NCBI GenBank assembly: GCA_035626775.1
Contig: DASPNA010000062.1
Location: forward strand, 3,480 to 67,479
Length of the DNA: 64,000 nucleotides
Reading direction: 5' to 3'
Source: Thermoanaerobaculia bacterium
Lineage (GTDB): Bacteria; Acidobacteriota; Thermoanaerobaculia; Gp7-AA8
The number at the start of each line of letters is the position of its first letter. The first letter of the stretch is position 1. The notes beneath the pieces are model-generated. The model saw only the letters and a list, made by a program, of their open reading frames with translations. It was not told where the DNA came from and did not search any database. Made by a program: the position numbers and the translations under genes. This document shows, piece by piece, positions 1,853 to 31,360 of this stretch.

Positions 1853-4800
1853 ATGCACGCTCGTTCACTGAGAATCCTCGCTCTGCTCCTGTTCTTTGCC
1901 ACGCCGCTTGCCGCCGATACGTTCACGCTCGTCGCCAGCGGCGGCAGTTGGAGCAACAACACGGTCTGGTTGCAGAACGGACTGCCCGCGGTGCGCTATC
2001 CCGGCTCGCTCGCCGGTACGGTCGACATCGTCAATCTGACGGTCCCGCTCTACACGGTCGCGGTGGATGTCGTGTTGAGCGAAGGGGTCGAGCTGCACGC
2101 GAACTGCCCGAGCAACACCAGCACGTGCGTGGTCGACGTCGGCGCCGCCGGCCTGCTGCGAACGTCCGGCGGAATCTCCACGATCACCGATGACGCGCAC
2201 CTGAAGCTGACCGGCGGCACGATCGAGGTTCGCGGCGCGCTCTCCCTCGGAGTCGGTTCGAAGTTCGACTGGAGCTCGGGGACGCTCACCGGCGTCGGCG
2301 CGACCGACATCGCGTACGACAGCGTCGACCCCGCGATTCTCACTCTCGTCAACGGCATCCTCGACGGCCACTCGCTCACCGTGCACGGCAAGGCGATCTA
2401 CACCGGCAGCTTTGGCATCAACAACGGCGGCCAGGTCGACATCACGACGAACGGCATCTTCGACATCCAGACGCTCGGTCCGATCACGACGAACAACCCG
2501 GCCACGTCGAAGATCGTGAACGGCGGCACGTTCGAAAAAACCGGCGGCGCGGGCGGCACGAACATCTCCGTTCCGCTGAACAACAACGGCATCGTGAAGG
2601 CGTGGTTCGGCACGCTGGTGCTGAGCGATGGCTCGCATACCAACGGCACGTTCGACGTCGCCTCGACGCACGGCCTCGAGATCGCCGGCACGTTCAATGG
2701 CACGTGCACGATCCAGGGCGCGGGCACGACCAAGATCGTCGGCACGCCCGTCATCGAGAACGGCGCGACGCTCAACGTCAACGGCGCGCTGTCGATGCTC
2801 GGCGGCTGGCTGCAGGGTCCCGCCGCCGGCACCGGCGTGGCCAATGTCAGCAGCGTGGTCACGTTCGACGGCGGCGCATGGCGGCGCAATCTGACTGTGA
2901 ACATGCTCACCGCATCGACGCTCGATGTCACCGGCGTGGCCAGTGTGGTTCTCGACGATGCCACCGTCGTCGCCGATGCCGGCGCGCTCGTGAAGATCAA
3001 TCCCGGTGTGAGTCTCGCGATCAACACAGGCAGCTCGATCACGAACAACGGCACGCTGCGGCTGACCGGCGACGTGACCGTTACGTCCGACGGCGTGTTC
3101 TCCCCGTTCATCGTCAACAACGCGCTGCTGGAGAAAACGGCCGGCGCGGGGATCGCGCGCATCGCCACGAAGGTCGACAACAACGGCACCGGCACCATCA
3201 GTGTTGCCAGCGGCGAGCTCGCGCTCAACGGCGGCGGGACGAGCAGCGGCACGATCAACATCCCCGCGGCCACGAACCAGCTCGTGTTCGAGAGCAACAC
3301 TTACACGCTCGCAGCGGGATCGTTGTTCAACATCACCGACCTGGGCTGGTTCCGCGTCGACGGCGGGACGTTGTCGCTCAGCGCGCCGCTCACGCTGAAG
3401 TTCGTCCATCTCCGTTCCGGCACACTCCGCGGATCGACGTTGATCATCAACAACGGCCTGAAGTGGAACGGCGGCACGATCCTCGGACCCGGTACCACGC
3501 AGATCGCCAGCACCGCTTCCGTCGACCTCGCGAACCTCACCGGATTCGCACTGCTCGACCAGCGCACCATCGAGAACGATGGTGCGGTCACGTACAACGC
3601 CGGCTTGTTCGGGCTGCGCATGTCCAACGGCGCGATCTGGAACAACCGGAATGGCGCGAGCTTCACCATCACCGGCGACGGCGCGATCGAGAGTCCGTCC
3701 GGCGTCAACGCGTTCAACAACCTCTCGGGCGCTACGGTCGCGAAGAACGGCGGCGCCAGCGGCACGCGCTTCGACGTCATCCTCACCAACGCCGGCACGA
3801 TTTCCTCGAACTCGCCGAACGGCACGATCATCGTCAACAACGGCGGCTCGATGACCGCGGGCTCGCTCGTGGTCAGCAACAGCGCGAACATCCACTTCTT
3901 CAACGGCACGTTCGCGATCAGCGGCGGCGTGATCACCGGCTCACCCGGCGTGGTGACGGTGCTCAACAACGGCCAGTTGAGCATCACGGACAGCGTCGTG
4001 TGCGCGGCGGCGTTCTCCATCTCGAACGGCGGCGTGCTCGACGTCGCACCGCTCAAAGTCTTCGCCATTGATGACTTTTTCTGGAGCGGCGGCTTGATCC
4101 AGGGCGGCGGCCAGGTGCGCGTCGCGGTGAGCGGCCTCGTGACGAATGCGGCGCCGACGACGCTGAGCGGCGGAACGGCGCTGACGATCGACAACACACT
4201 CGACTACGACGCCGACGCCATCAACCACCTCACCATCAACGACACCGCGCAACTCAGCCTCGGCCCAACCGCCGTGATGAGCCTGCGCCTCGACGGCATC
4301 CTCGCGGGTGCGTCGACGGCGACGATCGTCAATCAGGGCACACTGAAAAAGACCGTTGGCACCGGTACGTCGCGCATCGATGTACGCATCAACAGCAGCG
4401 CCGGCGCGGTTGGCGTGACCACGGCCGGATTTCTCCACCTCAAGACAGGCGGCGGCACCGGCAGTCTCGCCGGCACGCTGATCGACACCGGCACCGGCAG
4501 GATCCAGTTCGACGGCGACTATCTGATCGGCGCCGGCTCGTCGTTCATCGGCACGGGCACGGTGCAGATCGTATCGGGGATCGTGTCGATCACGCCGAAC
4601 GTGACCATCGAAAACCTCCTGCTCGATGGCGGCGCACTTTCGGGCAGCGGCGTCGTGGCGATCAACGGCGGCAAATGGACCGGCGGCGACATGGACGGCG
4701 GCGGCACCACGAGCGTCAATGCCGGCAAGACCTTCGAGATCGCCACCGGCACGACCAAGAAACTGCGCCGGTCGCTGATCAACAACGGCACGCTGCTGTT

Positions 4801-7800
4801 CCAGAACCTCCCGGCCGCGTTGACGATGGAGAACGGCGCGACGCTGACCAACAACTCGCTCACCGAGCTGCAGATGAACACCAACTTCTTCTGCACCTGC
4901 ACGCCGTCCACGTCGCGCTTTCACAACACGGCCACGGGCACGCTGCGCCAGTTCAACGCCGCGGGCACGAGCAACTTCCTCACCGTGTTCGACAACGACG
5001 GCGACGTCGACGTCGAGACCGGCATCCTGAACCTGATGAACGGCGGCACGCATACCGGCTCGTTCGGTGTGGACGCCGTGACGTTCCTGCAGTTCAGCGG
5101 ACCGGGCGACACATTCTCATCCGCGTCATCGATCGGCGGCGCAGGCGCAGTCGGGTTCGCCGGCACGAACAGCGTCTTCGCCGGTACGTACACGCTGACC
5201 GGCGCGAATGCGAAGACGATCGTGCAGGGCAACGTCACGTTCAACAGCAACGTGAGCACGCCCGCGCTCGAGCTTCGCTCCGGCACACTCGGCGGCACGG
5301 CGAATGTCGTCATCGCCGGCGGCGGCCCGGTGAGCAGTTGGCAGGGCGGCACGATCCAGGGCAGCGGCGCGCTCACCATCGCATCGGGCGCCGTCGTCGA
5401 CCTCAACACATCGTCGGCCGTAATCCTCGTGAGCGGCCGCACCATCACCAACAACGGCACCATCAACTACACGGCGTCGGTCAATCCGCTCACGCTCGGC
5501 GGCGGCGCCTCGATCGTGAACGCGCTCACGCTCGACGTGCAGACCGACACCGCGATCGCCATCGGCGCCGGCGGCGGCTCGATCACGAACAACGGCACGT
5601 TCACGAAGACCACCGCCACCGGTACCACCAGCATCGCACCCGCCTTCACGAACACGAACCTCGTCGACCTCACCAGCGGCATCGTCGACTTCGGCGGCGG
5701 CTTCACGCAGAGCGCCGGCCTGACGAAGCTCAACGGCGGCAACATGGGCGGTTCGTCCGTCGCGCTCAACGGCGGCACGCTCTCCGGCAACGGCACCATC
5801 ACCGCCGACGTCACCAACGGCGCGACGTTGTCGCCGGGCACGAGTCCGGGCGCGATCACGATCAGCGGCAACTACACGCAGACGAATGCAGGCACGCTCG
5901 CCATCGATCTCGGCGGCACGACACCCGCGACACAGTACGACCAGCTCAACGTCACCGGCACCGCCACGCTCAACGGCACACTCAACGTCGCATTCTTCGG
6001 CGGCTACATCCCGACCGGCGGTGAGACGTACGACGTCCTGAACTTCGCGTCGCGCAGCGGCGACTTTGCGGTGAAGACGCTGCCGGTGTTCCCGGCCGGC
6101 GGCTCCATCGAAGCGAATTACTTCCCGACGAAGCTGCAGCTCGCGGCAGTCGTAACGCAGACCGATCTCGCGGTCTCGCAGACTGATTCCGGTCCCGCGC
6201 TGCACAACGACACCGTGACCTTCACCGTCACCGTCACCAACAACGGTCCTTCCACCGCGGCCGGCGTCACGCTCGTCGATACGCTGTCGAATGCCACATT
6301 CATCTCCGCGACGTCGACGGTCGGCACGTGCAGCGGCACAGGACCGATCAACTGCAACATCGGCGGCCTCGCGCCGACGCAGAGTGCAGTCATCACGATC
6401 ACGGCCACCGCGAACTCGGTCGGCACGATCACCAACAACGCGAGCGTGAGCTCATCGACATTCGATCCGGACAACAGCAACAACAACGCGCCGACCGCCA
6501 GTATCATCGTCTCGCCGAAAGCAGACCTCGGCGTCACGATCACCGACGCAATCGATCCGGCCAATCCGCTGCAGAACGTGCTCTACAGCGTCAACGTCGT
6601 GAACAACGGTCCCGACAGCGCCGCATCGGCATCCATCGCGGTGTCGATCACCAATGGCTCCATCACCAGCGCGTCCGGCGCGCCGTTCACGTGCAGCGGC
6701 ACCGGGGCCAGCGCAACGTGTACGTCCGCCTCGCTCGCACCGGGCAGCTATGTCATCACCGTGGCCGCCCAGGCTCCCGCACAAGGGACGATGACGCTCA
6801 GCGCCACCGCGTCATCGAGCACGACCGATGTGCCGACGACGAACAACACCGCCAGCGAGACCACGACCATCAATTCGTTCGTCGACCTCACCATCACGAA
6901 GAGCGGTCTCACCAACGCCACCGCCGGCAGCGGCATCGTCTACACGATCACCGTGAAGAACACCGGTCCGTCCGACGCCGCGAATGTGGTCGTCGACGAT
7001 CCCACTCCCGCCGGCCTCTCATTCACCGGCAACAGCGGCGCGTGTTTCACGACGTTCCCCTGTTCGCTCGGCACCTTGACCGCGGGCCAGACCAAGGTCA
7101 TCACGTCGCAATGGAACGTGGAACCCGACACGCAGGGCACGGCCATCACGAACGTCGCCACCGTCTCCACGACGACTGCCGACACCGCCCCCGGCAACAA
7201 CACCGCCACCGCGACGACCACCGTTGATTGCACGAACACGACGCCAACGAATCTCCAGCCTGCGAACGGCGCCACGGTTGCTGCCGATGGCACGCTCTCC
7301 TGGAACGGCACGGGCAGTTCGTACACCGTCTTCCTCGGCCCCGCCGGCAGCGGCTGCACCACTCAGTTCGCAACCACCACTTCCACCTCGGTCACGTACT
7401 CCCTCACGCCAGGCACCACGTACGAATGGCGGGTTCGCAGCCACCTCGGCAACTGCGCGGTGCAGACCTCGAGCTGCATCACGTTCACGACCGCGCAGCA
7501 GTGCATCGCGCCGCAGGCTCCACTCGCACGCGTCGTCGCACAGACCACCACCGACAAGACTTACGCGGTCGAGTGGGACCTCGTGCCGGGCGCAACGCGC
7601 TACGAACTCGACGAAGCGACCAACGCCGCATTCACGAATGCGCAGACGTTCCAGGTCACCGGACTCTCGAAGTCCTTCAAGCACGACGTCACCGAACCGA
7701 CGGCGTTCTACTACCGCGTGCGCGCGTTCAACGATTGCGGTGTGGAAGCAGGACCGTATTCGCTCGCCATCCGCGCGGTGATCGTGCCGCTGCCCAGCGG

Positions 7801-9562
7801 CGACGACCCGCAGGACGTCAACGTGCCCGCCGGCTCCACAGAGCTCATCGTGCAAAGCCTCTTCGTCCCCGGCGAGCCGGACCAGACGTTGTTCTTCAAC
7901 GCCACCGCCGATCGTCCGTGGCTCACCGTGCGGCCCGCCAGCGGCGTGCTCACGCCCAACGGCGTCACGCTCGAAGTCACCGCCGATCCGCGCAACCTGC
8001 CGAACGGTACGTTCACCGCAAGCGTCATCGTCACGTTCGACGAGGGCTCTGGCATTCGCACGAACGCGAGCACGAAGAAGACGTTCCCGATGGCCATCAA
8101 CCTCGTCACACCGGTTTCGCCCGTCCCCGATAAAGGCGCCACGTCGCAGTTCGCGATGATCATCCCTACCGTCGGTCACCTCGGCGGCATCAACTCGCAA
8201 TGGCAGTCCGACGTGCGCGTCACGAACGCCGGCTTCCTCCCCGCGCGCTATCGCCTCACGTTCACGCCCGCCGCCGGCACCGCGCACGGCGTGCAGCAGA
8301 CCATCATCACCGTCGACGCCGGCGCGACCACCGCGCTCGATGACATCATCAGCAGTTGGTTCGGCATCGGCGCGCTCGGCGAGAACGCCAGCGGCATGCT
8401 CGAGATCCTGCCGCTCGATGACGCCGCGGTCGCCGCCGCCAGCACCGTCGCGTCGAGCCGCACGTACAACGTCACCGCGAACGGCACGCTCGGGCAGTTC
8501 ATCCCCGCGATCCGCTACGGCGGCTTCATCGGCAAGGCTCTCGAGAACGCGCTGCCGCAGATCCTCAGCCTGCAGCAGATCGCCGAGACCGGCGCGTATC
8601 GGACGAACGTCGGCATCGCCGAAGGCTCGGGTGAAGCCGCGTCGGTGCTGATGCGCTTCTTCGACGGCGGCGGCGCGAAGCTGCTCGAGCTGCCGCTGGA
8701 ACTGGCGGGCGGCGAACAGCGGCAGATGAACGCGATCCTGGCGCAGCACGGTTTCTCCGTCGCCGACGGCCGCGTCGAAGTGGAAGTCCTCGGCGGCACC
8801 GGCAAGGTGACTGCTTACGCGTCGGTGGTCGACAACCTCACCAACGATCCACTCCTGGTCAGCGGCACGCTGCTCGCGCAGGACGGCACGACGCGCTGGG
8901 TGCTGCCCGGCGCGGCGAGCCTCGACACGGCCATCGCGCATTGGCGCACCGACATGCGCGTCTTCAACTACGGCGCCGCGCCGCAGCCTGCGACGCTCAC
9001 GTTCTTCCCCGCCGCCGGCGGTGCGCAGGCCAGCACGGAAGTGTTGCTCGAGCCGGGCGAAGTGCTGACGCTCGACAACATCGTGAAGTCGACGTTCGGA
9101 CGCGACAACGCGGGCGGCGTCGTGCACCTCGACACCGCGACGAATGCGAACCTCATCGTCACCGGCCGCACGTACAACGAGACCGCAGCCGGCACTTACG
9201 GCCAGTTCATCCCGGCCGTCACGAGCGCCGAAGCAACGGGAATCGGCGGGCGCACGCTGCACATCCTGCAGGTCGAGGACTCCGTGCGCTATCGCACCAA
9301 CCTCGGCCTCGCGGAAGTGACAGGGCAGCCGGTGACGGTGGAAGTGCAGGTGTGGCTGCCGGACTCGAAGGTGACGCCGACGGTGGAGGTCCCGCTGGCC
9401 GCAAACGAGTTCCGCCAGTTCGGCCTCCGCGACCTCGGCCTCGGCAGCGTCTACAACGCGCGCGTCACGGTGCGCGTGATCGAAGGGACGGGTCGCGTCA
9501 CGGCTTACGGTTCGGTGATCGATGAGCTGACGCAGGATCCGACGTATGTGCCCGCGCAGTAA
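1853..9562 (+). CDS. Giant secreted protein 1 (2569 aa): signal peptide, PATR/autotransporter-passenger-like beta-helix repeats, DUF11 repeats, FN3-like domains, shared C-terminal tandem module
   Basis: Long ORF with signal peptide MHARSLRILALLLFFATPLAADT. Roughly 25-35 aa G/N/T-rich repeats with xKTGxG...NNG...GTL pattern through about aa 1400. DUF11 signature TVTFTVTVTNNGPSTAAGVTLVDTL. FN3-like YELDEA/W motifs. C-terminal 480 aa homologous to ends of the other two giants. Ends DPTYVPAQ. Confidence 0.85.
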   Translation: MHARSLRILALLLFFATPLAADTFTLVASGGSWSNNTVWLQNGLPAVRYPGSLAGTVDIVNLTVPLYTVAVDVVLSEGVELHANCPSNTSTCVVDVGAAGLLRTSGGISTITDDAHLKLTGGTIEVRGALSLGVGSKFDWSSGTLTGVGATDIAYDSVDPAILTLVNGILDGHSLTVHGKAIYTGSFGINNGGQVDITTNGIFDIQTLGPITTNNPATSKIVNGGTFEKTGGAGGTNISVPLNNNGIVKAWFGTLVLSDGSHTNGTFDVASTHGLEIAGTFNGTCTIQGAGTTKIVGTPVIENGATLNVNGALSMLGGWLQGPAAGTGVANVSSVVTFDGGAWRRNLTVNMLTASTLDVTGVASVVLDDATVVADAGALVKINPGVSLAINTGSSITNNGTLRLTGDVTVTSDGVFSPFIVNNALLEKTAGAGIARIATKVDNNGTGTISVASGELALNGGGTSSGTINIPAATNQLVFESNTYTLAAGSLFNITDLGWFRVDGGTLSLSAPLTLKFVHLRSGTLRGSTLIINNGLKWNGGTILGPGTTQIASTASVDLANLTGFALLDQRTIENDGAVTYNAGLFGLRMSNGAIWNNRNGASFTITGDGAIESPSGVNAFNNLSGATVAKNGGASGTRFDVILTNAGTISSNSPNGTIIVNNGGSMTAGSLVVSNSANIHFFNGTFAISGGVITGSPGVVTVLNNGQLSITDSVVCAAAFSISNGGVLDVAPLKVFAIDDFFWSGGLIQGGGQVRVAVSGLVTNAAPTTLSGGTALTIDNTLDYDADAINHLTINDTAQLSLGPTAVMSLRLDGILAGASTATIVNQGTLKKTVGTGTSRIDVRINSSAGAVGVTTAGFLHLKTGGGTGSLAGTLIDTGTGRIQFDGDYLIGAGSSFIGTGTVQIVSGIVSITPNVTIENLLLDGGALSGSGVVAINGGKWTGGDMDGGGTTSVNAGKTFEIATGTTKKLRRSLINNGTLLFQNLPAALTMENGATLTNNSLTELQMNTNFFCTCTPSTSRFHNTATGTLRQFNAAGTSNFLTVFDNDGDVDVETGILNLMNGGTHTGSFGVDAVTFLQFSGPGDTFSSASSIGGAGAVGFAGTNSVFAGTYTLTGANAKTIVQGNVTFNSNVSTPALELRSGTLGGTANVVIAGGGPVSSWQGGTIQGSGALTIASGAVVDLNTSSAVILVSGRTITNNGTINYTASVNPLTLGGGASIVNALTLDVQTDTAIAIGAGGGSITNNGTFTKTTATGTTSIAPAFTNTNLVDLTSGIVDFGGGFTQSAGLTKLNGGNMGGSSVALNGGTLSGNGTITADVTNGATLSPGTSPGAITISGNYTQTNAGTLAIDLGGTTPATQYDQLNVTGTATLNGTLNVAFFGGYIPTGGETYDVLNFASRSGDFAVKTLPVFPAGGSIEANYFPTKLQLAAVVTQTDLAVSQTDSGPALHNDTVTFTVTVTNNGPSTAAGVTLVDTLSNATFISATSTVGTCSGTGPINCNIGGLAPTQSAVITITATANSVGTITNNASVSSSTFDPDNSNNNAPTASIIVSPKADLGVTITDAIDPANPLQNVLYSVNVVNNGPDSAASASIAVSITNGSITSASGAPFTCSGTGASATCTSASLAPGSYVITVAAQAPAQGTMTLSATASSSTTDVPTTNNTASETTTINSFVDLTITKSGLTNATAGSGIVYTITVKNTGPSDAANVVVDDPTPAGLSFTGNSGACFTTFPCSLGTLTAGQTKVITSQWNVEPDTQGTAITNVATVSTTTADTAPGNNTATATTTVDCTNTTPTNLQPANGATVAADGTLSWNGTGSSYTVFLGPAGSGCTTQFATTTSTSVTYSLTPGTTYEWRVRSHLGNCAVQTSSCITFTTAQQCIAPQAPLARVVAQTTTDKTYAVEWDLVPGATRYELDEATNAAFTNAQTFQVTGLSKSFKHDVTEPTAFYYRVRAFNDCGVEAGPYSLAIRAVIVPLPSGDDPQDVNVPAGSTELIVQSLFVPGEPDQTLFFNATADRPWLTVRPASGVLTPNGVTLEVTADPRNLPNGTFTASVIVTFDEGSGIRTNASTKKTFPMAINLVTPVSPVPDKGATSQFAMIIPTVGHLGGINSQWQSDVRVTNAGFLPARYRLTFTPAAGTAHGVQQTIITVDAGATTALDDIISSWFGIGALGENASGMLEILPLDDAAVAAASTVASSRTYNVTANGTLGQFIPAIRYGGFIGKALENALPQILSLQQIAETGAYRTNVGIAEGSGEAASVLMRFFDGGGAKLLELPLELAGGEQRQMNAILAQHGFSVADGRVEVEVLGGTGKVTAYASVVDNLTNDPLLVSGTLLAQDGTTRWVLPGAASLDTAIAHWRTDMRVFNYGAAPQPATLTFFPAAGGAQASTEVLLEPGEVLTLDNIVKSTFGRDNAGGVVHLDTATNANLIVTGRTYNETAAGTYGQFIPAVTSAEATGIGGRTLHILQVEDSVRYRTNLGLAEVTGQPVTVEVQVWLPDSKVTPTVEVPLAANEFRQFGLRDLGLGSVYNARVTVRVIEGTGRVTAYGSVIDELTQDPTYVPAQ

Positions 9563-9626: not shown

Positions 9627-9815
9627 GCCTCACGTGATCTCTCTCACGGCGGTTGAGCTCGCGAAGCCCTACATTCTTCGCGGGTTCCTGCTCACAGTCG
9701 GATTGAAACGTTTATCATCGTTCGATCACTAACTGACTGCTGATCGTTTGCGCCGGTGGCCGCTTCCACCGTACGCGCGCGTGTGTATGTGAACGTCCAA
9801 CGGGAGAGCTCTGCG

Positions 9816-12800
9816 ATGTCCGGTGTTGCTGGCTGTCGGCGGTTCTTGTTATGTGCAGTGATGTTCCTGGCTGGTGCCGCCTCCGGGCAGAGCGTCGATC
9901 TTCGCGTCACCAACCTCTTCGACAGCATCGATCCGATCACCCTCGGCACCGGCGACGTGGCCTACTCGGCCACGATCTTCAACGGCAGCGCTACCGCGGG
10001 CACGAATCCAGTCGTCACGTTCACGCTCCCCGCGGCCTCGACGTTCGTCTCCGCGAGCGCGAACCTGAGCGGCACCTGCAACGCGCCGAGCGGCGGCACG
10101 CTCACCTGCACCTGGGCCGGCAGTTTCGCCGCCAGCAACACGCGCACGGCAACCATCACCGTCACCCCGACTGCCGGCGGCAGCATGAGCGTTACCGCGA
10201 GCGTCACCGGGGATCAACCCGACCCGACGCCGTCCAACAACTCGCTCACTGAATCGACCACGGTCAACGCGCAGATCGATCTCAAGATCAGCAGCCTCTT
10301 CGACAGCATCGATCCCATCACGCTCGGCACCGGCAACGTCACCTACACCGCGCAGATGTTCAACGAGAGCACCTCGAAGGCCACGAATCCCTTCGTGACC
10401 ATCACGCTCCCGGCATCATCCACGTTCGTTTCCGCGACCGCGAACCTGAGCGGCACCTGCACCGCGCCGAGCGGCGGCGTGCTCACGTGCAACTGGACCG
10501 GCGACTTTCCCGCGAGCAACACCCGCACTGCCACGGTCACCGTCACTCCCACCGCGGGCGGCACGATGACGCTGACGGCAACCGCCGGCGCCGATCAATC
10601 CGATCCCGATCCGGCGGACAACACGGCGTCGCACAACACGGCCGTCAACGCGCAGATCGACCTCAAAGTCAGCAGCCTGTTCGACAGCATCGACCCGGTC
10701 ACGCTGGGCACCGGCGACGTTACCTACACCGCGCAGATCTTCAACGAGAGCAGCTCGAAGGCCACGAATCCGTTCGTGACCGTCACGCTCCCGGCGTCAT
10801 CGACCTTCGTCTCCGCAAGCGCAAATCTCAGCGGTACGTGCGGCGCGCCGAGCGGCGGCGTCCTCACGTGCAACTGGACCGGCGACTTCCCCGCGAGCAA
10901 CACCCGCACCGCCAACATCACCGTCAGTCCGACCGCGGGCGGCACGATGACGTTGTCGGTCACTGCCGGCGCCGATCAATCCGATCCCGATCCAGCGGAC
11001 AACACCGCGAGCCATAACACCACCGTCAACGCGCAGATCGATCTGAAGGTGAGCAGTCTCTTCGACAGCATCGATCCCGTCACCCTCGGCACCGGCGACG
11101 TCACCTACACCGCCACGGTCTTCAACGAGAGCAGTTCCAAGGCCACGAATCCGTTCGTGACCTTCACGCTCCCCGCGTCATCGACCTTTGTCTCCGCATC
11201 CGCGAACCTCAGCGGCACCTGCGGTGCGCCCAGCGGCGGGGTCCTCACGTGCAACTGGACCGGCGACCTGCCCGCGAGCAACACGCGCACCGCCACCGTC
11301 ACCGTCACACCCACAGCGGGCGGCACGATGACGCTGACGGCAACGGCCGGCGCCGATCAGTCCGATCCCGACCCAGGGGACAACACCGCGAGCCACAACA
11401 CCACCGTCAACGCGCAGATCGATCTGCGCGTCAGCAGCCTGTTCGACAGCATCGACCCGATCACGCTCGGCACCGGCAACGTCACCTACACCGCGCAGAT
11501 TTTCAACGCCGGGACCTCGAAGGCGACCAACACGTTCGTCACCATCACGCTCCCCGCGTCGTCGACGTTCGTGTCGGCGAGCGCAAACGTCAGCGGCACG
11601 TGCACCGCGCCGAGCGGTGGCGTGCTGACGTGCAATTGGGCCGGCGATCTCGCCGCGTCCAACACGCGCACCGCCACCATCACCGTCACCCCCACGGCCG
11701 GCGGCACGATCACGCTCACCGCGGTCGCGGGCGGCGATCAACCCGATCCGAACAACGCCGACAACACCGTCTCGCACAACACCACCGTCAACGATCAGAT
11801 CGATCTGCGCGTGAGCAGCCTCTTCGACAGCATCGACCCGATCACGCTCGGCACCGGCAACGTCACCTACACCGCGCAGATCTTCAACGCCAGTTCGTCG
11901 AAGGCCACGAACGCGTTCGTGACCATCACGCTGCCCCCGTCATCGACGTTCGTCTCTGCGAGTGCGAACGTCAGCGGCACGTGCACCGCGCCGAGCGGTG
12001 GTGTGCTCACCTGCAACTGGGCCGGCGATCTCGCCGCGTCCAACACGCGCACCGCCTCCATTACCATCACGCCCACCGCTGGCGGCACGATGACGTTGAC
12101 CGCGGTCGCCGGCGGCGATCAGCCCGATCCCAACACCGCAGACAATACGGTTTCGCACAACACCGCCGTCAACGATCAGATCGATCTGCGCGTCAGCAGT
12201 CTCTTCGACAGCATCGACCCGGTCACGCTCGGCACCGGCAACGTCACTTACACCGCGCAGATCTTCAACGCCAGTACGTCGAAGGCGACCAATGCGTTCG
12301 TCACCTTCACCCTCCCCGCTTCGTCGACGTTCGTGAGCTCGACCGCGAACGTCGGCGGCACCTGCACCGCGCCGAGCGGCGGCGTGCTCACGTGCACCTG
12401 GGCCGGCGATCTCGCTGCGTCCAATACCCGCACGGCCACGATCTCCGTCACTCCCACCGTTGGCGGCACCATGACCCTCACCGCGGTCGCCGGCGGCGAT
12501 CAGCCCGATCCCAACACCGCCGACAACACGGCCTCGCACAACACGACCGTGAACGCGCAGATCGACCTGCGCATCAGCAGTCTCTTCGACAGCATCGACC
12601 CCATCACCCTCGGCACCGGCAACGTCACCTACACCGCGCAGGTCTTCAACGCCAGCTCGTCGAAAGCGACCAACGCATTCGTCACCTTCACGCTCCCCGC
12701 TTCGTCGACGTTCGTCAGCTCGACCGCGAATGTCGGCGGCACCTGCACGGCGCCGAGCGGCGGCGTGATGACGTGCACCTGGGCCGGCGATCTCGCCGCG

Positions 12801-15800
12801 TCGAACACCCGCACGGCTACCGTCACCGTTACTCCGACCGGCGGCGGCACGATGACGTTGACCACCACCGCGGGCGGCGATCAGCCCGATCCGAACACCT
12901 CCGACAACACCGCGTCGCAGAGCACCACCGTCAACGCCACGCTCGACCTGCAGCTCTCGATCAGCGACAGCCCCGATCCGCGCATCGTCGGCGCCGGGAA
13001 CGTCACCTACACATTCAACCTCCTCAACGCCGGCTCATCGAAAGTTACCAATCCCGTGTTGACGTTCACCATGGCGCCGTCGACCACGTTCGTCTCCGGG
13101 ACCGCGAGCAGCGGCGGAACGTGCGGACATTCGGCCGGCACCGTCACCTGCAACTGGACGGGCGACTTCAACGCGTCGACCGGTCGCACCGCGACCGTCA
13201 TCGTCACGCCGACCGTAGTCGGACAGATCAGCGCCACCGGCACCGTCAATGCCGATCAAGGCGACCCCGCGCCCGCGAACAACACCGAGACCGAGACCAC
13301 GAACATCTATCCGGCCACGGCGCCGACGATCACCGGCTTCACGCCGATCAGCGGACCGGTCGGCACCGTCGTCACGATCAGCGGCTCGAGCTTCTTCTCG
13401 ACTTCGTCGGTCTCATTCACCGGCGCCGGTGCGACGTTCACCGTTGTGAACGACACCACGATCACCACCACCGTCCCCGTCGGCGCGGCGACCGGCAAGA
13501 TCACCGTGCTGAACACGATCGGCTCGACGCTGAGCGCGGCCAACTTCACGGTCACGCCCGCTCCCGATCTCACCATCAGCAAGACCGCGTCCGCCGCGAC
13601 GGTGCCCGTCAGCTCGCCGTACAACTACACGCTCGCGGTCAACAACGGCGGCGCCGGCAGCGCGAATGACGTGACGGTCACCGACACGCTCCCGCTGGGC
13701 GTCACGCTCACGACCGCCGCCGGCACCGGCTGGACCTGCAGCGGCACGACCACGGTAACGTGCACGATGGGCGCGCTCGCACCGGGCGCGGCGCCGTCGA
13801 TCACGTTGAACGTGACCGCGCCTGCGACCGGCACGACCGTCAACAACATCGCCAACGTCAGCACGACCACGCCCGAGACGAGCACCGGCAACAACTCCGG
13901 CAGCGTCGCAGTCGGCATCGTCGGCTGCCCGACCACACCGGTCGTCACCGCACCCGCCACCGTGTGCGCCAACTCCACCAATCACACCGCGTCGACGCCG
14001 CTCGTTCCCGGCGGCACGTACGCGTGGTCGATCACGAACGGCACGATCACCTCGTCGACCACCAGCAACATCATCACGTTCGACGCAAACTCGAGCGGAC
14101 AGGTGCAGCTCGACGTCGCTGTGTTCGTGAGCTCCTGCCCGTCGGCGTTGAACACCGCGTTCGTGAACATCTCCGTGCCCACCGCCACGATCACGCCGAG
14201 CGGCCCCACTACATTCTGCAGCGGCGGCGGCGTGATGCTCACGGCCAACGCCGGTTCTTCCTACCTCTGGTCCACTGGCGCGACCACGCAGTCGATCAAC
14301 GTCAATACCGCCGGCAGCTACACGGTCGCGGTGACAAATGCAGACGGCTGCACCACGACGTCCGCAGCGACGAACGTGAGCGTGCTGCCGCCGCCGACGG
14401 CCACGATCACGCCGAGCGGTCCAACCACCTTCTGCGATGGCGGCAGCGTCACGCTGAGCGCGCCCGCGGGCATGACCAACTATTCCTGGTCGAACGGCGC
14501 CACGTCGCAGTCGATCAACGTCACCGACAGCGGCACGTTCACCGTCACGATCACCAACCCCAGCGGCTGCAGCGCCACGTCCGCGCCCGTGAGCGTCACC
14601 GAGCTCGCGCCGCTGGTGGCCACCATCACGCCGAGCGGCCCCACCACCTTCTGCAGCGGTGGCAGCGTCACGCTCGACGCCGGCGCCGGCTTCACGTCGT
14701 ATCTCTGGTCGAACGGCGCCACGTCGCAGTCGATCAACGTCGCCGCGTCCGGCACGTTCACCGTCACCGTCACCGACGCCAACACCTGCAGCGCCACCTC
14801 GGCGCCGACTGTCGTCACGATGAATCCGAATCCGACCGTGACGGTCAGCGGCCCCTCGACTGCGTGCGGCAGCGCCGTGCTCGACGCCGGTCCCGGATTC
14901 GCGACGTACAACTGGTCCAACGGCGCGACCACGCAGACGACCACGGTCACGACCACCGGCGGCTACTTCGTCACTGTCACCGACGCCAACGGCTGCTCCG
15001 CGACCTCGTCGCCGAAGAGCGTCACCATCAACTCCGCGCCCGGCGTCAACATCGCCGGCCCGCTCAGTGCGTGCGACAGCGCGAACCTCGACGCCGGCGC
15101 CGGCTTCGTCTCGTACCTCTGGAACACCGGCGCAATCTCGCAGTCGATCAACGTCACCACCAGCGGCGTCTACACCGTCACCGTGACCGACGCGAACGGC
15201 TGCACCGGCACCGACACGCACACCATCACCATCGATGCGACGCCGGCCGCGACGATCACGCCGAGCGGACCGACCACGTTCTGCGCGGGCGGCAGCGTCA
15301 CGCTCACCTCCAGTCCGGCCGCGTCGTACTTGTGGTCGAACGGCGCCACGACGCAGTCGATCGTCGTCACCGCATCCGAAACGTTCACCGTCACCACGTC
15401 GAACGGCGCGTGCAGCGCGACGTCGGCTCCGACCGTCGTCACCGTTTCGCCTGGAGCAACCGTCGACATCACCGGTCCCGCGGCGACGTGCGCGGGCGCC
15501 GCGGTCACGCTCGATGCGGGCGCGAACTTCGCGTCGTATCTCTGGAGCACCGGCGCGACGACGCAGACCATCACCGTCACGCCGTCGACGCTTACGACCT
15601 ACACCGTCAACGTCACCAACGCCAGCGGCTGCAGCGCAAGCGACACGCACACCGTGAACGTCACCGCGAATCCGGCCGCCACCATCAACGCGCCCGCAAC
15701 CGTCTGCAGTCTCGCCACGAATGCCACCGCCTCGGTCGCACCGCAAACGGGCGCGACGTACGCGTGGACGATCGCGAACGGCACCATCACCTCCGCGAAC

Positions 15801-18800
15801 AACACGCCGTCGATCACCTTCACCGCCGGCGCCAGCGGCTCCGTCACCCTCGACGTCACCGTCACGAACGGATCGTGCGTCAGCACCGGCTCGTCCGTCA
15901 TCCCGATCGGCGCGCTCACCGTCAACATCACCGGCCCCGCCGATAGCTGCCCCGGCGACCCGTTCACGCTCAGCGTGCCCGCGGCATTCGCGAGCTATCT
16001 CTGGTCGAACGGCGCAACCACGCCGTCGATGACCGCCGCCGCACCCGGCACGTACAGCGTCACCGTGACCGACGCAACCGGCTGCACCGCGTCGGCGTCG
16101 CACACCGTGGCACCGCTCACCGCGCCGCTCGCGACGATCAGCGCGCCAGCTTCGGCGCCCGCCGATAGCGCCGGCCACATCGCAAGCGTGCCGCTGTTCG
16201 CGGGTGCGGCCACGTACGCGTGGTCGATCGCGAACGGCACGATCACCGGCGGCCAGGGCACGACCGTGATCACGTTCCAGACCGGCAGCAGCGGCACGAC
16301 GACGCTCGGAGTCGTGATCGTGGGCAACGGTTGCTCGTCGAGCGACAACGTTGCTGTCGCAATCACGGAAGCCGGTCCGGGCTCCGCCGATCTGTCCATC
16401 TCGAAGACCGCGCCGTCATCGGTGCAGGCCGGCGCGCCGTTCGCGTACACGCTGGTGGTGACCAACAACGGCCCCGACACGGCCGGCGACGTCACGATCG
16501 AAGACGTCCTGCCCGCCGGCGTCACGCTTTCCTCCATGAACGACAGCGTCTTCACGTGCATCCCCAGCGGCCTGCCGATCCACTGCACCGGCGGGCTCGC
16601 CGCCGGCTCGTCACGCATGATCACCTTCAACGTGCTCGCGCCGCCGACCACCGGCACGATCACGAACACCGCCACCATCGCCGGCGGTCCCGGCGATGAG
16701 AACGACGCGAACAACACGTCGTCCGCATCGACGAACATCGTCGCTGCGCCGCCAAGCTGCTCGACCGTGCCTCCGTCGCTCATCGCACCGGCGAACAACG
16801 CCACCGTCCCGTCGCCGGTGACGTTCACCTGGAACCCGGTCAGCGGCGCGACCGAATACGAGCTCTGGATCGAGTCGTCGCTGGCGGGCACCACCAACGC
16901 GACGTCGCTCACACTTCCGCTGCCGAGCGGTGCCGCCACGTGGCACGTCGTAGCGCGACTCGCGGAGAGCTGCACGCCGCTCGTTTCCGCGGAGCGCACG
17001 CTGTTCGTCGCCACCTCGAGCACATGCGACAACGGCCGCCCGCAACTCCTCGCGCCGACCGCGGGCTCGACGCAGACGTCGCCGGTCTCGTTCCAGTGGA
17101 CCTCCGTCGCGAACGCGATCGGCTATCGCCTCTGGATCGAATCGAACGGTACCGCCGCGCAGGACGTCGGCACCACTACCGGCACCACGCTGACCGGCAA
17201 CATCGAGCCGGGCTCCGCGATCGCGTATGTCGACGCGCTGTTCAGCGGCTGCGGTCCGACGCGCTCCGATGCGATCCCGTTCAACGTGCCAGCACCCGAT
17301 CCGTGCGCCGCGCGCGCGACTGCCACACCGATCTCGCCGAACAACGCGATCCTCAGCTCGTCGCTCGTCACGTTCCAGTGGCATGCGGCCGCCGGCAGCG
17401 CTGGCTATCGCGTATGGGCCGCGATCGACGGCGCCGCGCCGGTTGTCATCGGCACGACCGAAGGCACTTCGCTGCAGGCGTTCATCGAGGACGGCGACGT
17501 GCTCTGGTTCGTCGAGTCGCTGTACGAAGGTTGCCCGTCCACGGAATCGCAACGCTTCCACTTCACCATCCCACCGGCACAGCAATGCGGCACGAGCCCG
17601 CTGCCGAATCTCGCGCAGCCGGTCAACGACTCGACCACGCAGGATGGTGAGATCGACTTCCGCTGGACAAACGTCCCGAACGCGATCGCGTACGAGCTGT
17701 GGCTCGGCTTCGCGGACGCCGCTCCCGCACTCGTCACCACGACCAGCGCGACCGAGCACACACACATCGTGGCGCCCGGCACGTACGACTGGTTCGTGCG
17801 CGCGATCATGAATCGCTGCCCGTCGCGCGATTCACAGACGCGCACGTTCACGTTCACCCCGCCGCCCGCCTGCACCGCGAATCAGCGTCCGACAGCAATC
17901 GAGCCGCTGCCCGGCGCGACGCATACGCCGGCAGTGGCGTTCTCATGGGGCGCCGTCCCGAACGCGACGCATTACGAGCTCTTCATCGACGGCGCCGCCG
18001 TCACGAACACCAGCACTACGCAAGCGACGCGGACGCTGCTCACCGGACCGCACCGCTGGTTCGTGCGCGCGCACTTTGCGAACTGCGCACCGCTCGATTC
18101 CGCCGCGCAGCCGATCAACGTCGTGCAGCCGCCGCAAGCGTGTGCGCCATTGCGCGCGCCCGCGATCTCCGCGCCCGGACAGATCTCCAGCGGCGTCGAA
18201 CTGCGCGTGCAATGGTCGCCGTCGCCCGGTGCGACTGCGTATCAGGTGCAGTTCGCGTCGACGAGCGATTTCCTGGACGCTGAAGTGATCGTCACGAACG
18301 CAACGCAGCACTCGCTGCTGCGCGTGAACGACGGCACGACGCCACTCTCGATCTTCGCGCGCGTGCGCGCCATCGACGCGCGTTGCAAGCCGACGCCATC
18401 GGTCTCGCCGTTCGGGCCAACGTCCGTCCTGCACATCCTGCCGGCATCGGCCGAAGCATCCGTGCCGCTGACGAACAATGACGTGGCGACCTTCACCGTG
18501 CCGATCGGCGCCGAGTTCGCCGGCCAGTCGTTCACCGCGACGGTCAAAGAAACGTGGCTCACCGTCACGCCGTCGTCCGGCATCGTCCCCGCCGGCGGCA
18601 CCACGCTCACCGCCCAGGCGAACACCAGCGTCCTCGGCGTCGGCACGCACCTCGGCGCCGTCTTCCTGACGTTCGAAAGCGCGGGCAGCATTCGCACGAA
18701 CGCCACCACGCTCAAAGTGCCGACGATCTCGATCAGCAAAGTCACGCCGGTCACGCCGTCGCCGAAGTCGACGCCGCCGCCCGACGCGCTGATCATCCCC

Positions 18801-20225
18801 GCGGTCGCGCACGCGAGCGGCATCAACTCGCAGTTCCAGTCCGACGTGCGCGTGACGAACAGCTCCGCGGAGCTGCTGCAGTATCAACTCACGTTCACGC
18901 CGACCGGCACCGACGGCCTCGCCTCCGCGCGGCAGACGACGTTCTCGATCGATCCCGGCCGCACCATCGCGCTCGACGACATCCTGCGCACGATGTTCGG
19001 CACCGGCGGCGACAGCGTCACCGGCACGCTCGAAGTGCGGCCCATGACCGAAAACGACTCGACGACGACGTCGGATTCTTCGCTCTTCGGCGGAGCGCTC
19101 GCGGATCTCGTCACCTTCGCGTCGTCGCGCACGTTCAACGTCACCTCGAACGGCACGTTCGGCCAATACATCCCGGCCGTGCCGTACGCGAATTTCGTCG
19201 GCATGAGTCCGACGGTGCTGTCGCTCCAGCAGATCGCACAATCCGATCGCTACCGCACCAACCTCGGCATCGTCGAAGCCTCCGGCAGTCCGGCCGAGCT
19301 GCTCGTCAAAGTATTCGGCAGCGACGGCCAGTTCCTCAAGGAGTTCCCGGTCAACCTCGCGGGCGGTGAGCACACACAGCTCAACGGCTTCATCTCCACG
19401 CAGGGCATCGGCACGTTGAGCGACGGCCGCGTCGAGATCTCCGTGATCGGCGGCACGGGCAAGGTCACGGCGTACGCGTCGGTGCTCGACAACGCCACGA
19501 ACGATCCGCTGCTCGTCACGCCGGTCGCGCTGAACGATGCGGGCGACACCAAGTGGGTCGTGCCCGGCGTCGCCGATCTCAACAACGGCTTCGCGAACTG
19601 GCAGACCGACATGCGCCTCTTCAACGCCGGCTCGACCGACGTCGACGCGCTGCTCACGTTCCACTCGCAGGGCGGCGGCACGCCGAAGACACAGTCTGTG
19701 ACCATTCCCGCGGGCCAGGTGCGGCAGTTCGACAAAGCGCTGGCCAGCGTCTTCGGCTCGGCCGGCGATGGCGGCGCGATTCACATCTCCACGCCGAGCG
19801 CCACCCGCCTCGTCGCCACGGCGCGCACGTACAACGAGACCAGCGGCGGCACGTATGGCCAGTTCATCTCCGGCATCACGCCGAACGAAGCGACCGGTAC
19901 CGACTCGCGCCCGCTGCAGATCCTGCAGGTCGAGGAGTCGAACCGCTTCCGCTCGAACATCGGCCTCGCCGAAGTCACCGGCAAACCGGTGACGCTCGAG
20001 CTGTCGATCATTCCGCCGGACGGGAAGTTCATCGCCGTGACCGAGGTCGAGTTGCAGGCGAACGAGTTCCGCCAGATCAATTCGCTGCTGAGGACTGTCG
20101 GCCTCGCCGACACGTTCAACGCGCGAGTGAGCGTGCGCGCGATCGAAGGCGAAGGCCGCGTGACCGCGTACGCGAGCGTCATCGACATGCTCACCAACGA
20201 CCCGACCTACGTGCCGGCGCAGTAA
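9816..20225 (+). CDS. Giant secreted protein 2 (about 3470 aa): signal peptide, 9 tandem DUF11 repeats, IPT/TIG, Cys-containing Ig-like repeats, about 10 FN3-like domains, shared C-terminal tandem module
   Basis: ORF 9756..20225. Preferred start at Met21 (9816: MSGVAGCRRFLLCAVMFLAGAASGQ signal peptide, GGGAGA RBS upstream). IPT motif PTITGFTPISGPVGTVVTISGSSF. Repeats YLWSNGATTQSINV...C...C. FN3-like units with EYELWIESS / GYRLWIES / HYELFIDGA. Ends DPTYVPAQ. Confidence 0.85.
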   Translation: MSGVAGCRRFLLCAVMFLAGAASGQSVDLRVTNLFDSIDPITLGTGDVAYSATIFNGSATAGTNPVVTFTLPAASTFVSASANLSGTCNAPSGGTLTCTWAGSFAASNTRTATITVTPTAGGSMSVTASVTGDQPDPTPSNNSLTESTTVNAQIDLKISSLFDSIDPITLGTGNVTYTAQMFNESTSKATNPFVTITLPASSTFVSATANLSGTCTAPSGGVLTCNWTGDFPASNTRTATVTVTPTAGGTMTLTATAGADQSDPDPADNTASHNTAVNAQIDLKVSSLFDSIDPVTLGTGDVTYTAQIFNESSSKATNPFVTVTLPASSTFVSASANLSGTCGAPSGGVLTCNWTGDFPASNTRTANITVSPTAGGTMTLSVTAGADQSDPDPADNTASHNTTVNAQIDLKVSSLFDSIDPVTLGTGDVTYTATVFNESSSKATNPFVTFTLPASSTFVSASANLSGTCGAPSGGVLTCNWTGDLPASNTRTATVTVTPTAGGTMTLTATAGADQSDPDPGDNTASHNTTVNAQIDLRVSSLFDSIDPITLGTGNVTYTAQIFNAGTSKATNTFVTITLPASSTFVSASANVSGTCTAPSGGVLTCNWAGDLAASNTRTATITVTPTAGGTITLTAVAGGDQPDPNNADNTVSHNTTVNDQIDLRVSSLFDSIDPITLGTGNVTYTAQIFNASSSKATNAFVTITLPPSSTFVSASANVSGTCTAPSGGVLTCNWAGDLAASNTRTASITITPTAGGTMTLTAVAGGDQPDPNTADNTVSHNTAVNDQIDLRVSSLFDSIDPVTLGTGNVTYTAQIFNASTSKATNAFVTFTLPASSTFVSSTANVGGTCTAPSGGVLTCTWAGDLAASNTRTATISVTPTVGGTMTLTAVAGGDQPDPNTADNTASHNTTVNAQIDLRISSLFDSIDPITLGTGNVTYTAQVFNASSSKATNAFVTFTLPASSTFVSSTANVGGTCTAPSGGVMTCTWAGDLAASNTRTATVTVTPTGGGTMTLTTTAGGDQPDPNTSDNTASQSTTVNATLDLQLSISDSPDPRIVGAGNVTYTFNLLNAGSSKVTNPVLTFTMAPSTTFVSGTASSGGTCGHSAGTVTCNWTGDFNASTGRTATVIVTPTVVGQISATGTVNADQGDPAPANNTETETTNIYPATAPTITGFTPISGPVGTVVTISGSSFFSTSSVSFTGAGATFTVVNDTTITTTVPVGAATGKITVLNTIGSTLSAANFTVTPAPDLTISKTASAATVPVSSPYNYTLAVNNGGAGSANDVTVTDTLPLGVTLTTAAGTGWTCSGTTTVTCTMGALAPGAAPSITLNVTAPATGTTVNNIANVSTTTPETSTGNNSGSVAVGIVGCPTTPVVTAPATVCANSTNHTASTPLVPGGTYAWSITNGTITSSTTSNIITFDANSSGQVQLDVAVFVSSCPSALNTAFVNISVPTATITPSGPTTFCSGGGVMLTANAGSSYLWSTGATTQSINVNTAGSYTVAVTNADGCTTTSAATNVSVLPPPTATITPSGPTTFCDGGSVTLSAPAGMTNYSWSNGATSQSINVTDSGTFTVTITNPSGCSATSAPVSVTELAPLVATITPSGPTTFCSGGSVTLDAGAGFTSYLWSNGATSQSINVAASGTFTVTVTDANTCSATSAPTVVTMNPNPTVTVSGPSTACGSAVLDAGPGFATYNWSNGATTQTTTVTTTGGYFVTVTDANGCSATSSPKSVTINSAPGVNIAGPLSACDSANLDAGAGFVSYLWNTGAISQSINVTTSGVYTVTVTDANGCTGTDTHTITIDATPAATITPSGPTTFCAGGSVTLTSSPAASYLWSNGATTQSIVVTASETFTVTTSNGACSATSAPTVVTVSPGATVDITGPAATCAGAAVTLDAGANFASYLWSTGATTQTITVTPSTLTTYTVNVTNASGCSASDTHTVNVTANPAATINAPATVCSLATNATASVAPQTGATYAWTIANGTITSANNTPSITFTAGASGSVTLDVTVTNGSCVSTGSSVIPIGALTVNITGPADSCPGDPFTLSVPAAFASYLWSNGATTPSMTAAAPGTYSVTVTDATGCTASASHTVAPLTAPLATISAPASAPADSAGHIASVPLFAGAATYAWSIANGTITGGQGTTVITFQTGSSGTTTLGVVIVGNGCSSSDNVAVAITEAGPGSADLSISKTAPSSVQAGAPFAYTLVVTNNGPDTAGDVTIEDVLPAGVTLSSMNDSVFTCIPSGLPIHCTGGLAAGSSRMITFNVLAPPTTGTITNTATIAGGPGDENDANNTSSASTNIVAAPPSCSTVPPSLIAPANNATVPSPVTFTWNPVSGATEYELWIESSLAGTTNATSLTLPLPSGAATWHVVARLAESCTPLVSAERTLFVATSSTCDNGRPQLLAPTAGSTQTSPVSFQWTSVANAIGYRLWIESNGTAAQDVGTTTGTTLTGNIEPGSAIAYVDALFSGCGPTRSDAIPFNVPAPDPCAARATATPISPNNAILSSSLVTFQWHAAAGSAGYRVWAAIDGAAPVVIGTTEGTSLQAFIEDGDVLWFVESLYEGCPSTESQRFHFTIPPAQQCGTSPLPNLAQPVNDSTTQDGEIDFRWTNVPNAIAYELWLGFADAAPALVTTTSATEHTHIVAPGTYDWFVRAIMNRCPSRDSQTRTFTFTPPPACTANQRPTAIEPLPGATHTPAVAFSWGAVPNATHYELFIDGAAVTNTSTTQATRTLLTGPHRWFVRAHFANCAPLDSAAQPINVVQPPQACAPLRAPAISAPGQISSGVELRVQWSPSPGATAYQVQFASTSDFLDAEVIVTNATQHSLLRVNDGTTPLSIFARVRAIDARCKPTPSVSPFGPTSVLHILPASAEASVPLTNNDVATFTVPIGAEFAGQSFTATVKETWLTVTPSSGIVPAGGTTLTAQANTSVLGVGTHLGAVFLTFESAGSIRTNATTLKVPTISISKVTPVTPSPKSTPPPDALIIPAVAHASGINSQFQSDVRVTNSSAELLQYQLTFTPTGTDGLASARQTTFSIDPGRTIALDDILRTMFGTGGDSVTGTLEVRPMTENDSTTTSDSSLFGGALADLVTFASSRTFNVTSNGTFGQYIPAVPYANFVGMSPTVLSLQQIAQSDRYRTNLGIVEASGSPAELLVKVFGSDGQFLKEFPVNLAGGEHTQLNGFISTQGIGTLSDGRVEISVIGGTGKVTAYASVLDNATNDPLLVTPVALNDAGDTKWVVPGVADLNNGFANWQTDMRLFNAGSTDVDALLTFHSQGGGTPKTQSVTIPAGQVRQFDKALASVFGSAGDGGAIHISTPSATRLVATARTYNETSGGTYGQFISGITPNEATGTDSRPLQILQVEESNRFRSNIGLAEVTGKPVTLELSIIPPDGKFIAVTEVELQANEFRQINSLLRTVGLADTFNARVSVRAIEGEGRVTAYASVIDMLTNDPTYVPAQ
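9894..13320 (+). repeat. Tandem array of 9 x 381-bp (127-aa) DUF11-type repeats inside giant gene 2; 8 near-identical copies and 1 divergent
   Basis: Protein units IDL[KR][VI]SSLFDSIDP[IV]TLGTG[DN]VTYTAQIFN...NTASHNTTVNAQ repeat head to tail. Antisense shadow ORFs recur at exactly 381-bp spacing (10343, 10724, 11105, 11486, 11867, 12248, 12629). Confidence 0.9.
14180..16100 (+). repeat. Array of about 8-9 tandem 78-82-aa Ig-like repeats with conserved Cys pair and Y[LN]WS[NT]GA[TI][ST]QSI motif inside giant gene 2
   Basis: Repeated ATITPSGPTTFC.GGSVTL.A..G...YLWSNGATSQSINV...GT[FY]TVTVTDANGCSATSAP..VT read directly from ORF translation. Confidence 0.65.
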
Positions 20226-28051: not shown

Positions 28052-28140
28052 AGTTCCCCGGAGTACCTCGGGTTCCTCGGAGGGGTTTTAACCCCCCGAG
28101 GAACCCCGAGGAACCGAGGAACCCGAGGAACCAGCGGCCG
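28052..28140. repeat. REP-like hairpin with arms made of tandem CCTCGG(A/G)(G/T)TAC-type 10-bp units, family 1; between convergent genes
   Basis: ccggagtacctcgggttcctcggagggg-tttta-accccccgaggaaccccgaggaaccgaggaacccgaggaacc followed by (GCNGCC)n. Overlaps the 3' end of the pgl ORF. Confidence 0.6.
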
Positions 28141-31346: not shown

Positions 31347-31360
31347 GGGGCAAGTCTAGT

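Follow-up and report, generated by a model that had tools for sequence, protein, structure and literature searches.

We analysed a 64,000-nucleotide (nt) stretch of DNA, referred to as the window (positions 3,480 to 67,479 of contig DASPNA010000062.1), from a metagenome-assembled genome (MAG) of a Thermoanaerobaculia bacterium, and focused on a giant gene that begins with a long tandem array of 381-bp units. The list of open reading frames (ORFs) and their translations placed the array in a frame open from a GTG at 9756 to 20225 on the plus strand (10.4 kb). Judging from the sequence, the start codon is likely the ATG at 9816, giving a gene at 9816–20225 (+) that encodes a secreted multi-domain protein of 3469 amino acids (aa). 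The same start and length were called on the source contig, MEGAHIT contig k141_709987 (70,654 bp; ENA ERZ27252492), of which the window is a part. A Sec signal peptide, MSGVAGCRRFLLCAVMFLAGAASGQ, was predicted at the N-terminus (9816–9890, +) by its Arg-Arg n-region, hydrophobic core and small residues before a Gln. The same protein is deposited at NCBI as HYC60120.1, a MAG-derived record labelled "Thermoanaerobaculia bacterium", which begins at an internal Met (MFLAGAAS...) 15 residues downstream of ATG 9816 and thus cuts the predicted signal peptide. An exact-sequence look-up of this start-codon variant (P0122) gave no match.

Tandem Repeats Finder detected a single strong array in the window (84% matches, score 3544), at 9895–12937, with a period of 381 and 8.0 copies. 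Gapless repeat finding also returned eight copies, each starting exactly 381 bp after the one before, and the protein showed the motif xDL[RKQ] every 127 residues, nine times. The array comprises nine in-frame units starting at 9894 + 381n and ending at 13322, and forms the N-terminal part of the protein directly after the signal peptide. The ninth unit was missed by Tandem Repeats Finder because it is too diverged; it was alignable over its full length, apart from the loss of single codons at two places and a tail longer by two codons, and scored 173 bits against a hidden Markov model (HMM) of the units, compared with 213–219 bits for units 2–8. On the opposite strand, seven antisense "shadow" ORFs of 73–79 aa (10343–12868, −) were spaced exactly 381 bp apart, with ends at 10343, 10724, 11105, 11486, 11867, 12248 and 12629; these are by-products of the repeat, not genes.

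The nine units, all on the plus strand, differed in their similarity to one another. The first unit, W1 (9894–10274), is a divergent edge copy with 72–75% nt and 66–69% aa identity to units 2–8. Units W2–W4 (10275–11417, 3 × 381 bp) form subgroup A, which is 87–88% identical in nt among its members and was recovered as a neighbour-joining clade with 100% bootstrap. Units W5–W8 (11418–12941, 4 × 381 bp) form subgroup B, with 83–90% nt identity and 98% bootstrap, and the two subgroups share 77–83% nt identity. The last unit, W9 (12942–13322), is the second divergent edge copy, with 61–64% nt and 46–53% aa identity to the other units. Across all pairs of units 2–8 the identities were 77–90% in nt and 75–93% in aa, and neighbouring units among W2–W8 shared 81–93% of their protein sequence. 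Each pair within units 2–8 carried 40–87 differences per 381 positions, and most of these fell on the third base of a codon. Across the entire gene, the longest stretch repeated exactly measured 59 nt, with a left copy in W5 (11442–11500, +) and a right copy in W6 (11823–11881, +); the next longest matches were 41–42 nt.

A first-pass annotation of this DNA, made from the letters and the ORF list, had described nine head-to-tail 381-bp DUF11 units with divergent first and ninth copies and antisense ORFs every 381 bp from 10343 to 12629, all of which the present results bear out. It had also called eight of the copies near-identical and the repeats near-perfect, a description that does not hold, as the similar core is confined to units 2–8 at 77–90% nt identity with a longest exact match of 59 nt.

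All nine units individually passed the gathering score of Pfam DUF11 (PF01345), with a best E value of 8.5e-17, and unit 5 reached 60.3 bits against a cut-off of 24.6. The whole protein matched DUF11 with E = 1.7e-142 and 467 bits over 11 DUF11 stretches, and matched the NCBIfam model TIGR01451 with 177 bits. DUF11, recently renamed CLIPPER in Pfam, is a CnaA-like immunoglobulin-like (Ig-like) domain that often occurs in tandem in fibrillar adhesin stalks (PMC12617251). An AlphaFold model of unit 5 was all-beta with eight strands (predicted local distance difference test score 89.4, predicted template modelling score 0.82), and Foldseek matched it to the DUF11 structure 9IFR with E = 2.4e-5, template modelling (TM) scores of 0.71/0.73 and a root mean square deviation of 3.4 Å. 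Foldseek also matched the integrin-alpha Ig-like domains with similar scores, as well as TTHA1873, so the fold match alone is unspecific. In a profile–profile alignment, the array units matched the canonical DUF11 domains of the same protein with 96.5% probability. These results demonstrate that each array unit is a 127-aa DUF11/CLIPPER Ig-like beta-sandwich domain of the known family.

In 9IFR, an isopeptide bond links Lys715 and Asn806, with Asp748 as the catalytic residue, and some DUF11 domains are without these triad residues (PMC12617251). Two DUF11/CLIPPER domains of the giant protein outside the array keep the triad: one at 13560–13922 (+), with Lys in ISKT, Asp in VTDTLP and Asn in NNIA, and a second at 16383–16742 (+), with ISKT, IEDVLP and TNTA. 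A profile of four canonical DUF11 sequences aligned to 9IFR, weakly (E = 0.036), with the Lys (ISKT), Asp (xxDxLP) and Asn in register, and a single canonical domain searched against PDB sequences also found 9IFR only weakly, at E = 0.12. The array profile found only the CARDB-like entries 2KL6 and 3IDU among PDB sequences, weakly (E about 0.2–0.3). At the three triad positions the array units carry Ser7 (Lys site), Ile/Val/Phe43 (Asp site) and Leu100 (Asn site), and across 153 related units, drawn from about 20 loci, K, D and N were absent from these sites. By its residues at the triad sites, the array is thus built from the isopeptide-less kind of DUF11. C62, C72 and W74 were invariant in 153/153 related units, and the Cys-x9-Cys pair and the Trp are present in all nine array units; disulfides are common in the DUF11 domains of Acidobacteriota (PMC12617251). 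A Cys62–Cys72 disulfide probably stabilises the units. By analogy with fibrillar adhesins, the array domains may form a beads-on-a-string extension or stalk.

We then compared the array with its relatives, which were found through DNA-level locus searches and the 90%-identity protein cluster. Homologue searches with a 480-aa and a 127-aa query listed matches of at most 838 aa and at most 221 aa, respectively, and neither the query protein nor a giant orthologue was among them. The nearest orthologue, L002, lies on a 4169-bp contig of another Thermoanaerobaculia MAG and was the sole close orthologue among species-representative genomes. Its gene encodes a signal peptide followed by seven units, namely a divergent first unit, five similar units at 82–91% nt identity and a divergent last unit, and its unique downstream region shares 74% nt and 71% aa identity with the window. 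Internal units were 77–91% identical in nt within each genome and 71–77% identical between the window and L002. In the neighbour-joining tree they formed genome-specific clades (W2–8, 87% bootstrap; T2–6, 100%), with a ladder that follows the physical order, and the last units W9 and T7 paired as orthologues at 70% nt identity. A metagenome scan recovered further arrays of this unit type that are more distant (45–51% aa identity).

The HMM unit count was constant within each of two related clades. All five loci of one clade had 13 units; four of these loci were 88–93% identical with position-specific orthology for 12–13 of the 13 units, and the fifth, at 78% identity, also had 13. All nine loci of the other clade had six units, including eight loci at 87–98% identity and one at 73%; here the best match lay at the same position for only 2–6 of the six units among loci 87–94% identical. 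Copy number thus varies from one deep branch to another (6, 7, 9 and 13) but not within a branch, which argues against a hypervariable array. We also observed that the 13-unit arrays (L007, L008, L012, L017 and L006) consist of two sub-arrays, units 2–5 and units 8–12, each 76–90% identical internally and 59–72% identical to the other, parted by the divergent units 6–7; this suggests that they arose by two separate expansions.

The divergence between units was estimated by the Nei–Gojobori method. Neighbouring units inside each subgroup showed a synonymous divergence (dS) of 0.38–0.47 and a ratio of nonsynonymous to synonymous divergence (dN/dS) of 0.10–0.16, and across the W4/W5 subgroup boundary dS rose to 0.72 and dN/dS to 0.21. 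The closest units had a dS of about 0.38–0.40. At fourfold sites, the closest units differed by 0.28–0.31, compared with 0.44 in the orthologous flank between the window and L002 and a saturation level of 0.56 for this composition. Fourfold-site divergence of the closest units thus amounts to about half of that seen in the flank. The youngest duplications or homogenisations are accordingly roughly half as old as the split of the two species, and not recent.

One explanation for the similarity of the internal units is ongoing gene conversion, that is, concerted evolution in progress that keeps them alike, and the first-pass annotation had proposed homogenisation of this kind. The clustering of internal units by genome, together with the older edge units that escape it, is what one would expect if internal copies expanded or were homogenised, and to this extent the proposal stands. 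The blurred position-specific orthology in the 6-unit clade points the same way, as does a candidate 41-nt tract between W6 and W7 with a pairwise p of 0.004 in a Sawyer-type permutation test. In the same test, however, no conversion tract was significant over all pairs, the W6–W7 tract being the best with a global p of 0.06. The closest units still differ at 28% of fourfold sites, the position-specific orthology in the 13-unit clade indicates independent evolution of the units, and the ladder tree in physical order fits stepwise duplication. Taken together, ongoing conversion is improbable. A diversity-generating retroelement was also considered, as one survey of such elements mentions DUF11; it was set aside on the finding that unit differences are mostly synonymous third-position changes and are not adenine-targeted, and a reverse transcriptase was not searched for.

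The reading that we favour is that, once the lineage had separated from its seven-unit nearest known relative, the 381-bp unit would have been multiplied stepwise by unequal crossing-over or tandem duplication. A stepwise process is suggested because neighbours are each other's closest relatives, because the core falls into two subgroups and because the edge units are old. The units then diverged mainly at synonymous sites under purifying selection (dN/dS 0.10–0.21 for neighbouring core units). With perfect tracts of at most 59 nt left today, further gain or loss of a unit would be possible and infrequent; a second assembly records one case of this kind, unless it reflects a collapse during assembly that looks the same. 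Homologous recombination drops steeply with sequence divergence and requires tens of identical bases. Slow copy-number change fits this need for identity, because the identical tracts available in the array are one of 59 nt and a handful near 40 nt. The earlier suggestion that the repeats recombine readily and that the length is hypervariable finds no support in the 77–90% DNA identity, the dS of the closest units or the constant copy numbers in two clades diverged by 7–27% in DNA. Its milder form, that copy number may differ between strains, agrees with the nine, seven, six and 13 units of the window, L002 and the distant clades. Overall, we are fairly confident that the array consists of nine isopeptide-less CLIPPER domains that expanded stepwise, then drifted at synonymous sites and now change slowly in number.

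Several points weigh against this picture. The disulfide and the stalk role are deduced from sequence and family membership, and since the array lies directly behind the signal peptide and does not separate an anchor from a ligand-binding head, "stalk" may be a misnomer. Every copy number derives from short-read assembly of metagenomes, a procedure prone to under-counting repeats. Synonymous sites are about half saturated in this GC-rich gene (GC content at third codon positions about 91%), which makes the relative ages rough. The clustering by genome fits independent expansions and old concerted evolution alike, and two genomes cannot separate them.

A second assembly of the same strain has exactly one unit fewer. 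The third member of the protein's 90%-identity cluster (P0123) is 3342 aa long, exactly 127 aa shorter, and corresponds to the window protein without unit 5. It is encoded on MEGAHIT contig k141_710316 (L029; 42,868 bp; ENA ERZ27257325). Over 27,495 bp compared base by base, this contig and the window had zero mismatches outside a clean 381-bp deletion, and the only interval that fits both alignments at the deletion junction is the 59-nt tract common to units 5 and 6. Position 1 of L029 corresponds to window position 2350, inside giant gene 1 (1853–9562), so the neighbouring giant gene is also broken in that assembly. The 59-nt junction site is the expected place for unequal homologous recombination or replication slippage, and equally for a de Bruijn collapse at k ≤ 59. 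We rated the two readings of the missing unit, a real recombination or slippage allele and an assembly collapse, as about equally probable. The opposite reading, in which the nine-unit version would result from the artificial placing of a strain-variant unit 6 in tandem, was rejected, as W5 and W6 show 40 differences within one exact period; in addition, the surrounding 27 kb is identical and the W5-to-W6 junction sequence must exist in the reads.

The assembly-artefact explanation holds that the array has a fixed nine units and that, at low coverage, the graph collapsed at the 59-nt tract (k ≤ 59), the unit-5 loop was pruned and the chimera was carried forward. The junction lies in the sole shared tract of at least 57–59 nt, a length that matches MEGAHIT k values, and k = 59 belongs to the default k list of that assembler. 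In the SMAG pipeline, the MEGAHIT settings "--k-min 27 --k-step 10" give k = 57 and may not be those of the present assemblies (PMC10640626). MEGAHIT carries low-k contigs forward, the eight-unit contig is shorter (42.9 vs 70.7 kb) and begins inside gene 1, which suggests lower coverage, and the close contig numbers (709987 and 710316) hint at related read sets. Assemblers evidently struggle with such arrays, as six of the 23 related metagenome contigs end inside one (L010, L013, L020, L022, L025 and L026), and the L002 contig ends inside the second repeat array of its gene, of the type found at 14173–16140 in the window. On the other hand, unitig assemblers normally end the contig at a node of this kind and do not skip the loop, and both assemblies agree on the remainder of the array, whose shared tracts measure 30–42 nt. 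No orphan protein fragment with unit 5 was found above 60% identity in the protein collection, which is weak evidence since short contigs are often discarded. We give this explanation close to an even chance. The copy-number or assembly hazard named in the first-pass annotation is thus borne out in one documented case, the eight-unit contig, and is not general; the contigs that end in arrays also accord with it.

The alternative is an actively variable locus of the Periscope type, in which unequal recombination is frequent, co-existing cells or strains differ in length and the eight-unit contig is a real allele. Periscope Proteins include SasG, Rib, Sgo_0707, Esp and CdrA (Whelan et al. 2021, PMC8201768). 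The operational screen for them looks for repeats of more than 50 aa that share ≥80% protein identity, and for proteins that vary in length while being ≥90% identical, and the model assumes that high DNA identity between repeats drives frequent intragenic recombination (PMC8201768). In the present case, two assemblies free of mismatches over 27.5 kb are told apart by a single in-frame unit, and the junction falls within the longest identical tract of the most similar unit pair, where recombination or slippage would act. A k = 141 contig needs junction-spanning k-mers, which, as far as can be inferred from the workings of MEGAHIT, are normally read-derived, and the missing orphan fragment of unit 5 is in line with a real allele. 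The protein also comes within the screen, with repeats at about 80% or more protein identity and a length variant at ≥90% identity. Against frequent recombination stand the DNA identity of 77–90%, compared with the near-100% that the Periscope model assumes, the single tract above 42 nt and the dS of about 0.4 between the closest units. Moreover, copy number was constant across five and nine diverged loci of two related clades, and the single variant was seen in short-read assemblies, a source of length variants against which the Periscope paper itself warns (PMC8201768). An actively variable locus is therefore unlikely.

That the eight-unit contig is nevertheless a real allele, by which an uncultured soil Thermoanaerobaculia alters the length of a giant surface protein through recombination at a 59-nt identity island, is possible, though we lean slightly away from it. 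If this is true, Periscope-type length variation would reach into free-living Acidobacteriota, and arrays drifted far apart at synonymous sites would still be able to gain or lose units. In either case, the gene length in this MAG and in public records is uncertain by at least one unit, as nine-unit (3469/3454 aa) and eight-unit (3342 aa) versions coexist.

Downstream of the array, the giant protein contains modules of several other types. A second array of about 70-aa Cys-containing modules (14173–16140, +) comprises about 8–10 units of 207–219 bp that are 61–87% identical, with the motif TITPSGPTTFCxGGSVTL...YLWSNGATTQSI...C. At 16750–18100 (about aa 2330–2790 of the 3489-aa ORF) we observed about six repeats of about 95 aa with the motif "V.F.W..V.GA..Y.LW" and paired Cys, which had no Pfam family match. 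The protein ends in a C-terminal module of about 700 aa (18123–20222, +) that also stands, at 7496–9559 and 25890–28046, at the ends of two neighbouring giant genes, with 44% and 39% identity to these copies by tblastn. Pfam and NCBIfam gave no match to it. In genes 1 and 2 the module terminates in ...DPTYVPAQ*, and there is weak duplication within the module. As a speculation, it could be a shared anchoring, sorting or functional part of the gene cluster. Pfam and NCBIfam found neither an RTX or type-1 secretion signal nor a retention module in the giant protein, and no known anchor, sorting or adhesive domain.

Short intergenic repeats were also observed elsewhere in the window. Arrays of a 9–10-bp unit lie at 31358–31468 and 31530–31561, with about 11 copies of TACCTCGGAG/TTCCTCGGRG facing three copies of the reverse complement CTCCGAGGTA about 60 nt apart, between the divergent genes G6PD (−) and an ORF at 31564 (+). 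The same unit family recurs intergenically at 28094–28132 and 37805–37845. These arrays could be regulator-binding sites or hairpin-forming elements. A second inverted pair with another unit lies at 38872–38897 and 38931–38975, where three copies of AGTCTCAG face 5.6 copies of CTCTGAGA, an offset reverse complement, about 33 nt apart.

Among the closest known systems is the DUF11/CLIPPER family (PF01345; TIGR01451 "B_ant_repeat"; 9IFR; Costa et al. 2025, PMC12617251). The units of the giant protein are like it in Pfam match and in fold (TM about 0.7), and a tandem array in a long secreted protein with a signal peptide is the typical setting of the family (PMC12617251). The protein differs in that the nine array units are without all three isopeptide residues, whereas two other DUF11 domains in the same protein have the triad, and in that the array lies at the extreme N-terminus, not mid-protein. 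With giant Gram-negative fibrillar adhesins of the LapA/RTX type it shares a very long secreted protein made mostly of tandem Ig-like modules of several types. It differs from them by its predicted N-terminal Sec signal peptide, with an RTX/type-1 signal and a retention module undetected by Pfam/NCBIfam, and by its ending in the uncharacterised module of about 700 aa common to two neighbouring giant genes.

Periscope Proteins resemble the giant protein in their repeats, its 127-aa units being 81–93% identical in protein between neighbours, against the usual rule that neighbours diverge. The likeness in repeat identity is narrow, as all pairs of units 2–8 span 75–93% and the most distant pairs are borderline. 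The one-unit length difference between otherwise identical proteins is a formal likeness that comes from short-read evidence. Unlike in Periscope Proteins, the repeats are not highly identical in DNA (77–90%; one tract above 42 nt; dS at least 0.38) and related clades each keep a stable copy number. Pfam/NCBIfam identified neither an anchor nor a ligand-binding head, and the protein is made by an uncultured acidobacterium living in soil, not by a host-associated pathogen. Nothing in the array would surprise a specialist, and it contains no new domain. It does add to the CLIPPER family a group of 153 units from about 20 loci in which the triad is replaced by hydrophobic residues and the Cys pair is kept. 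The locus also offers a clean example of how a tandem array would age, through duplication of the unit followed by synonymous drift with the protein held, and since this drift removes the long identical tracts that recombination needs, copy number would be stabilised.

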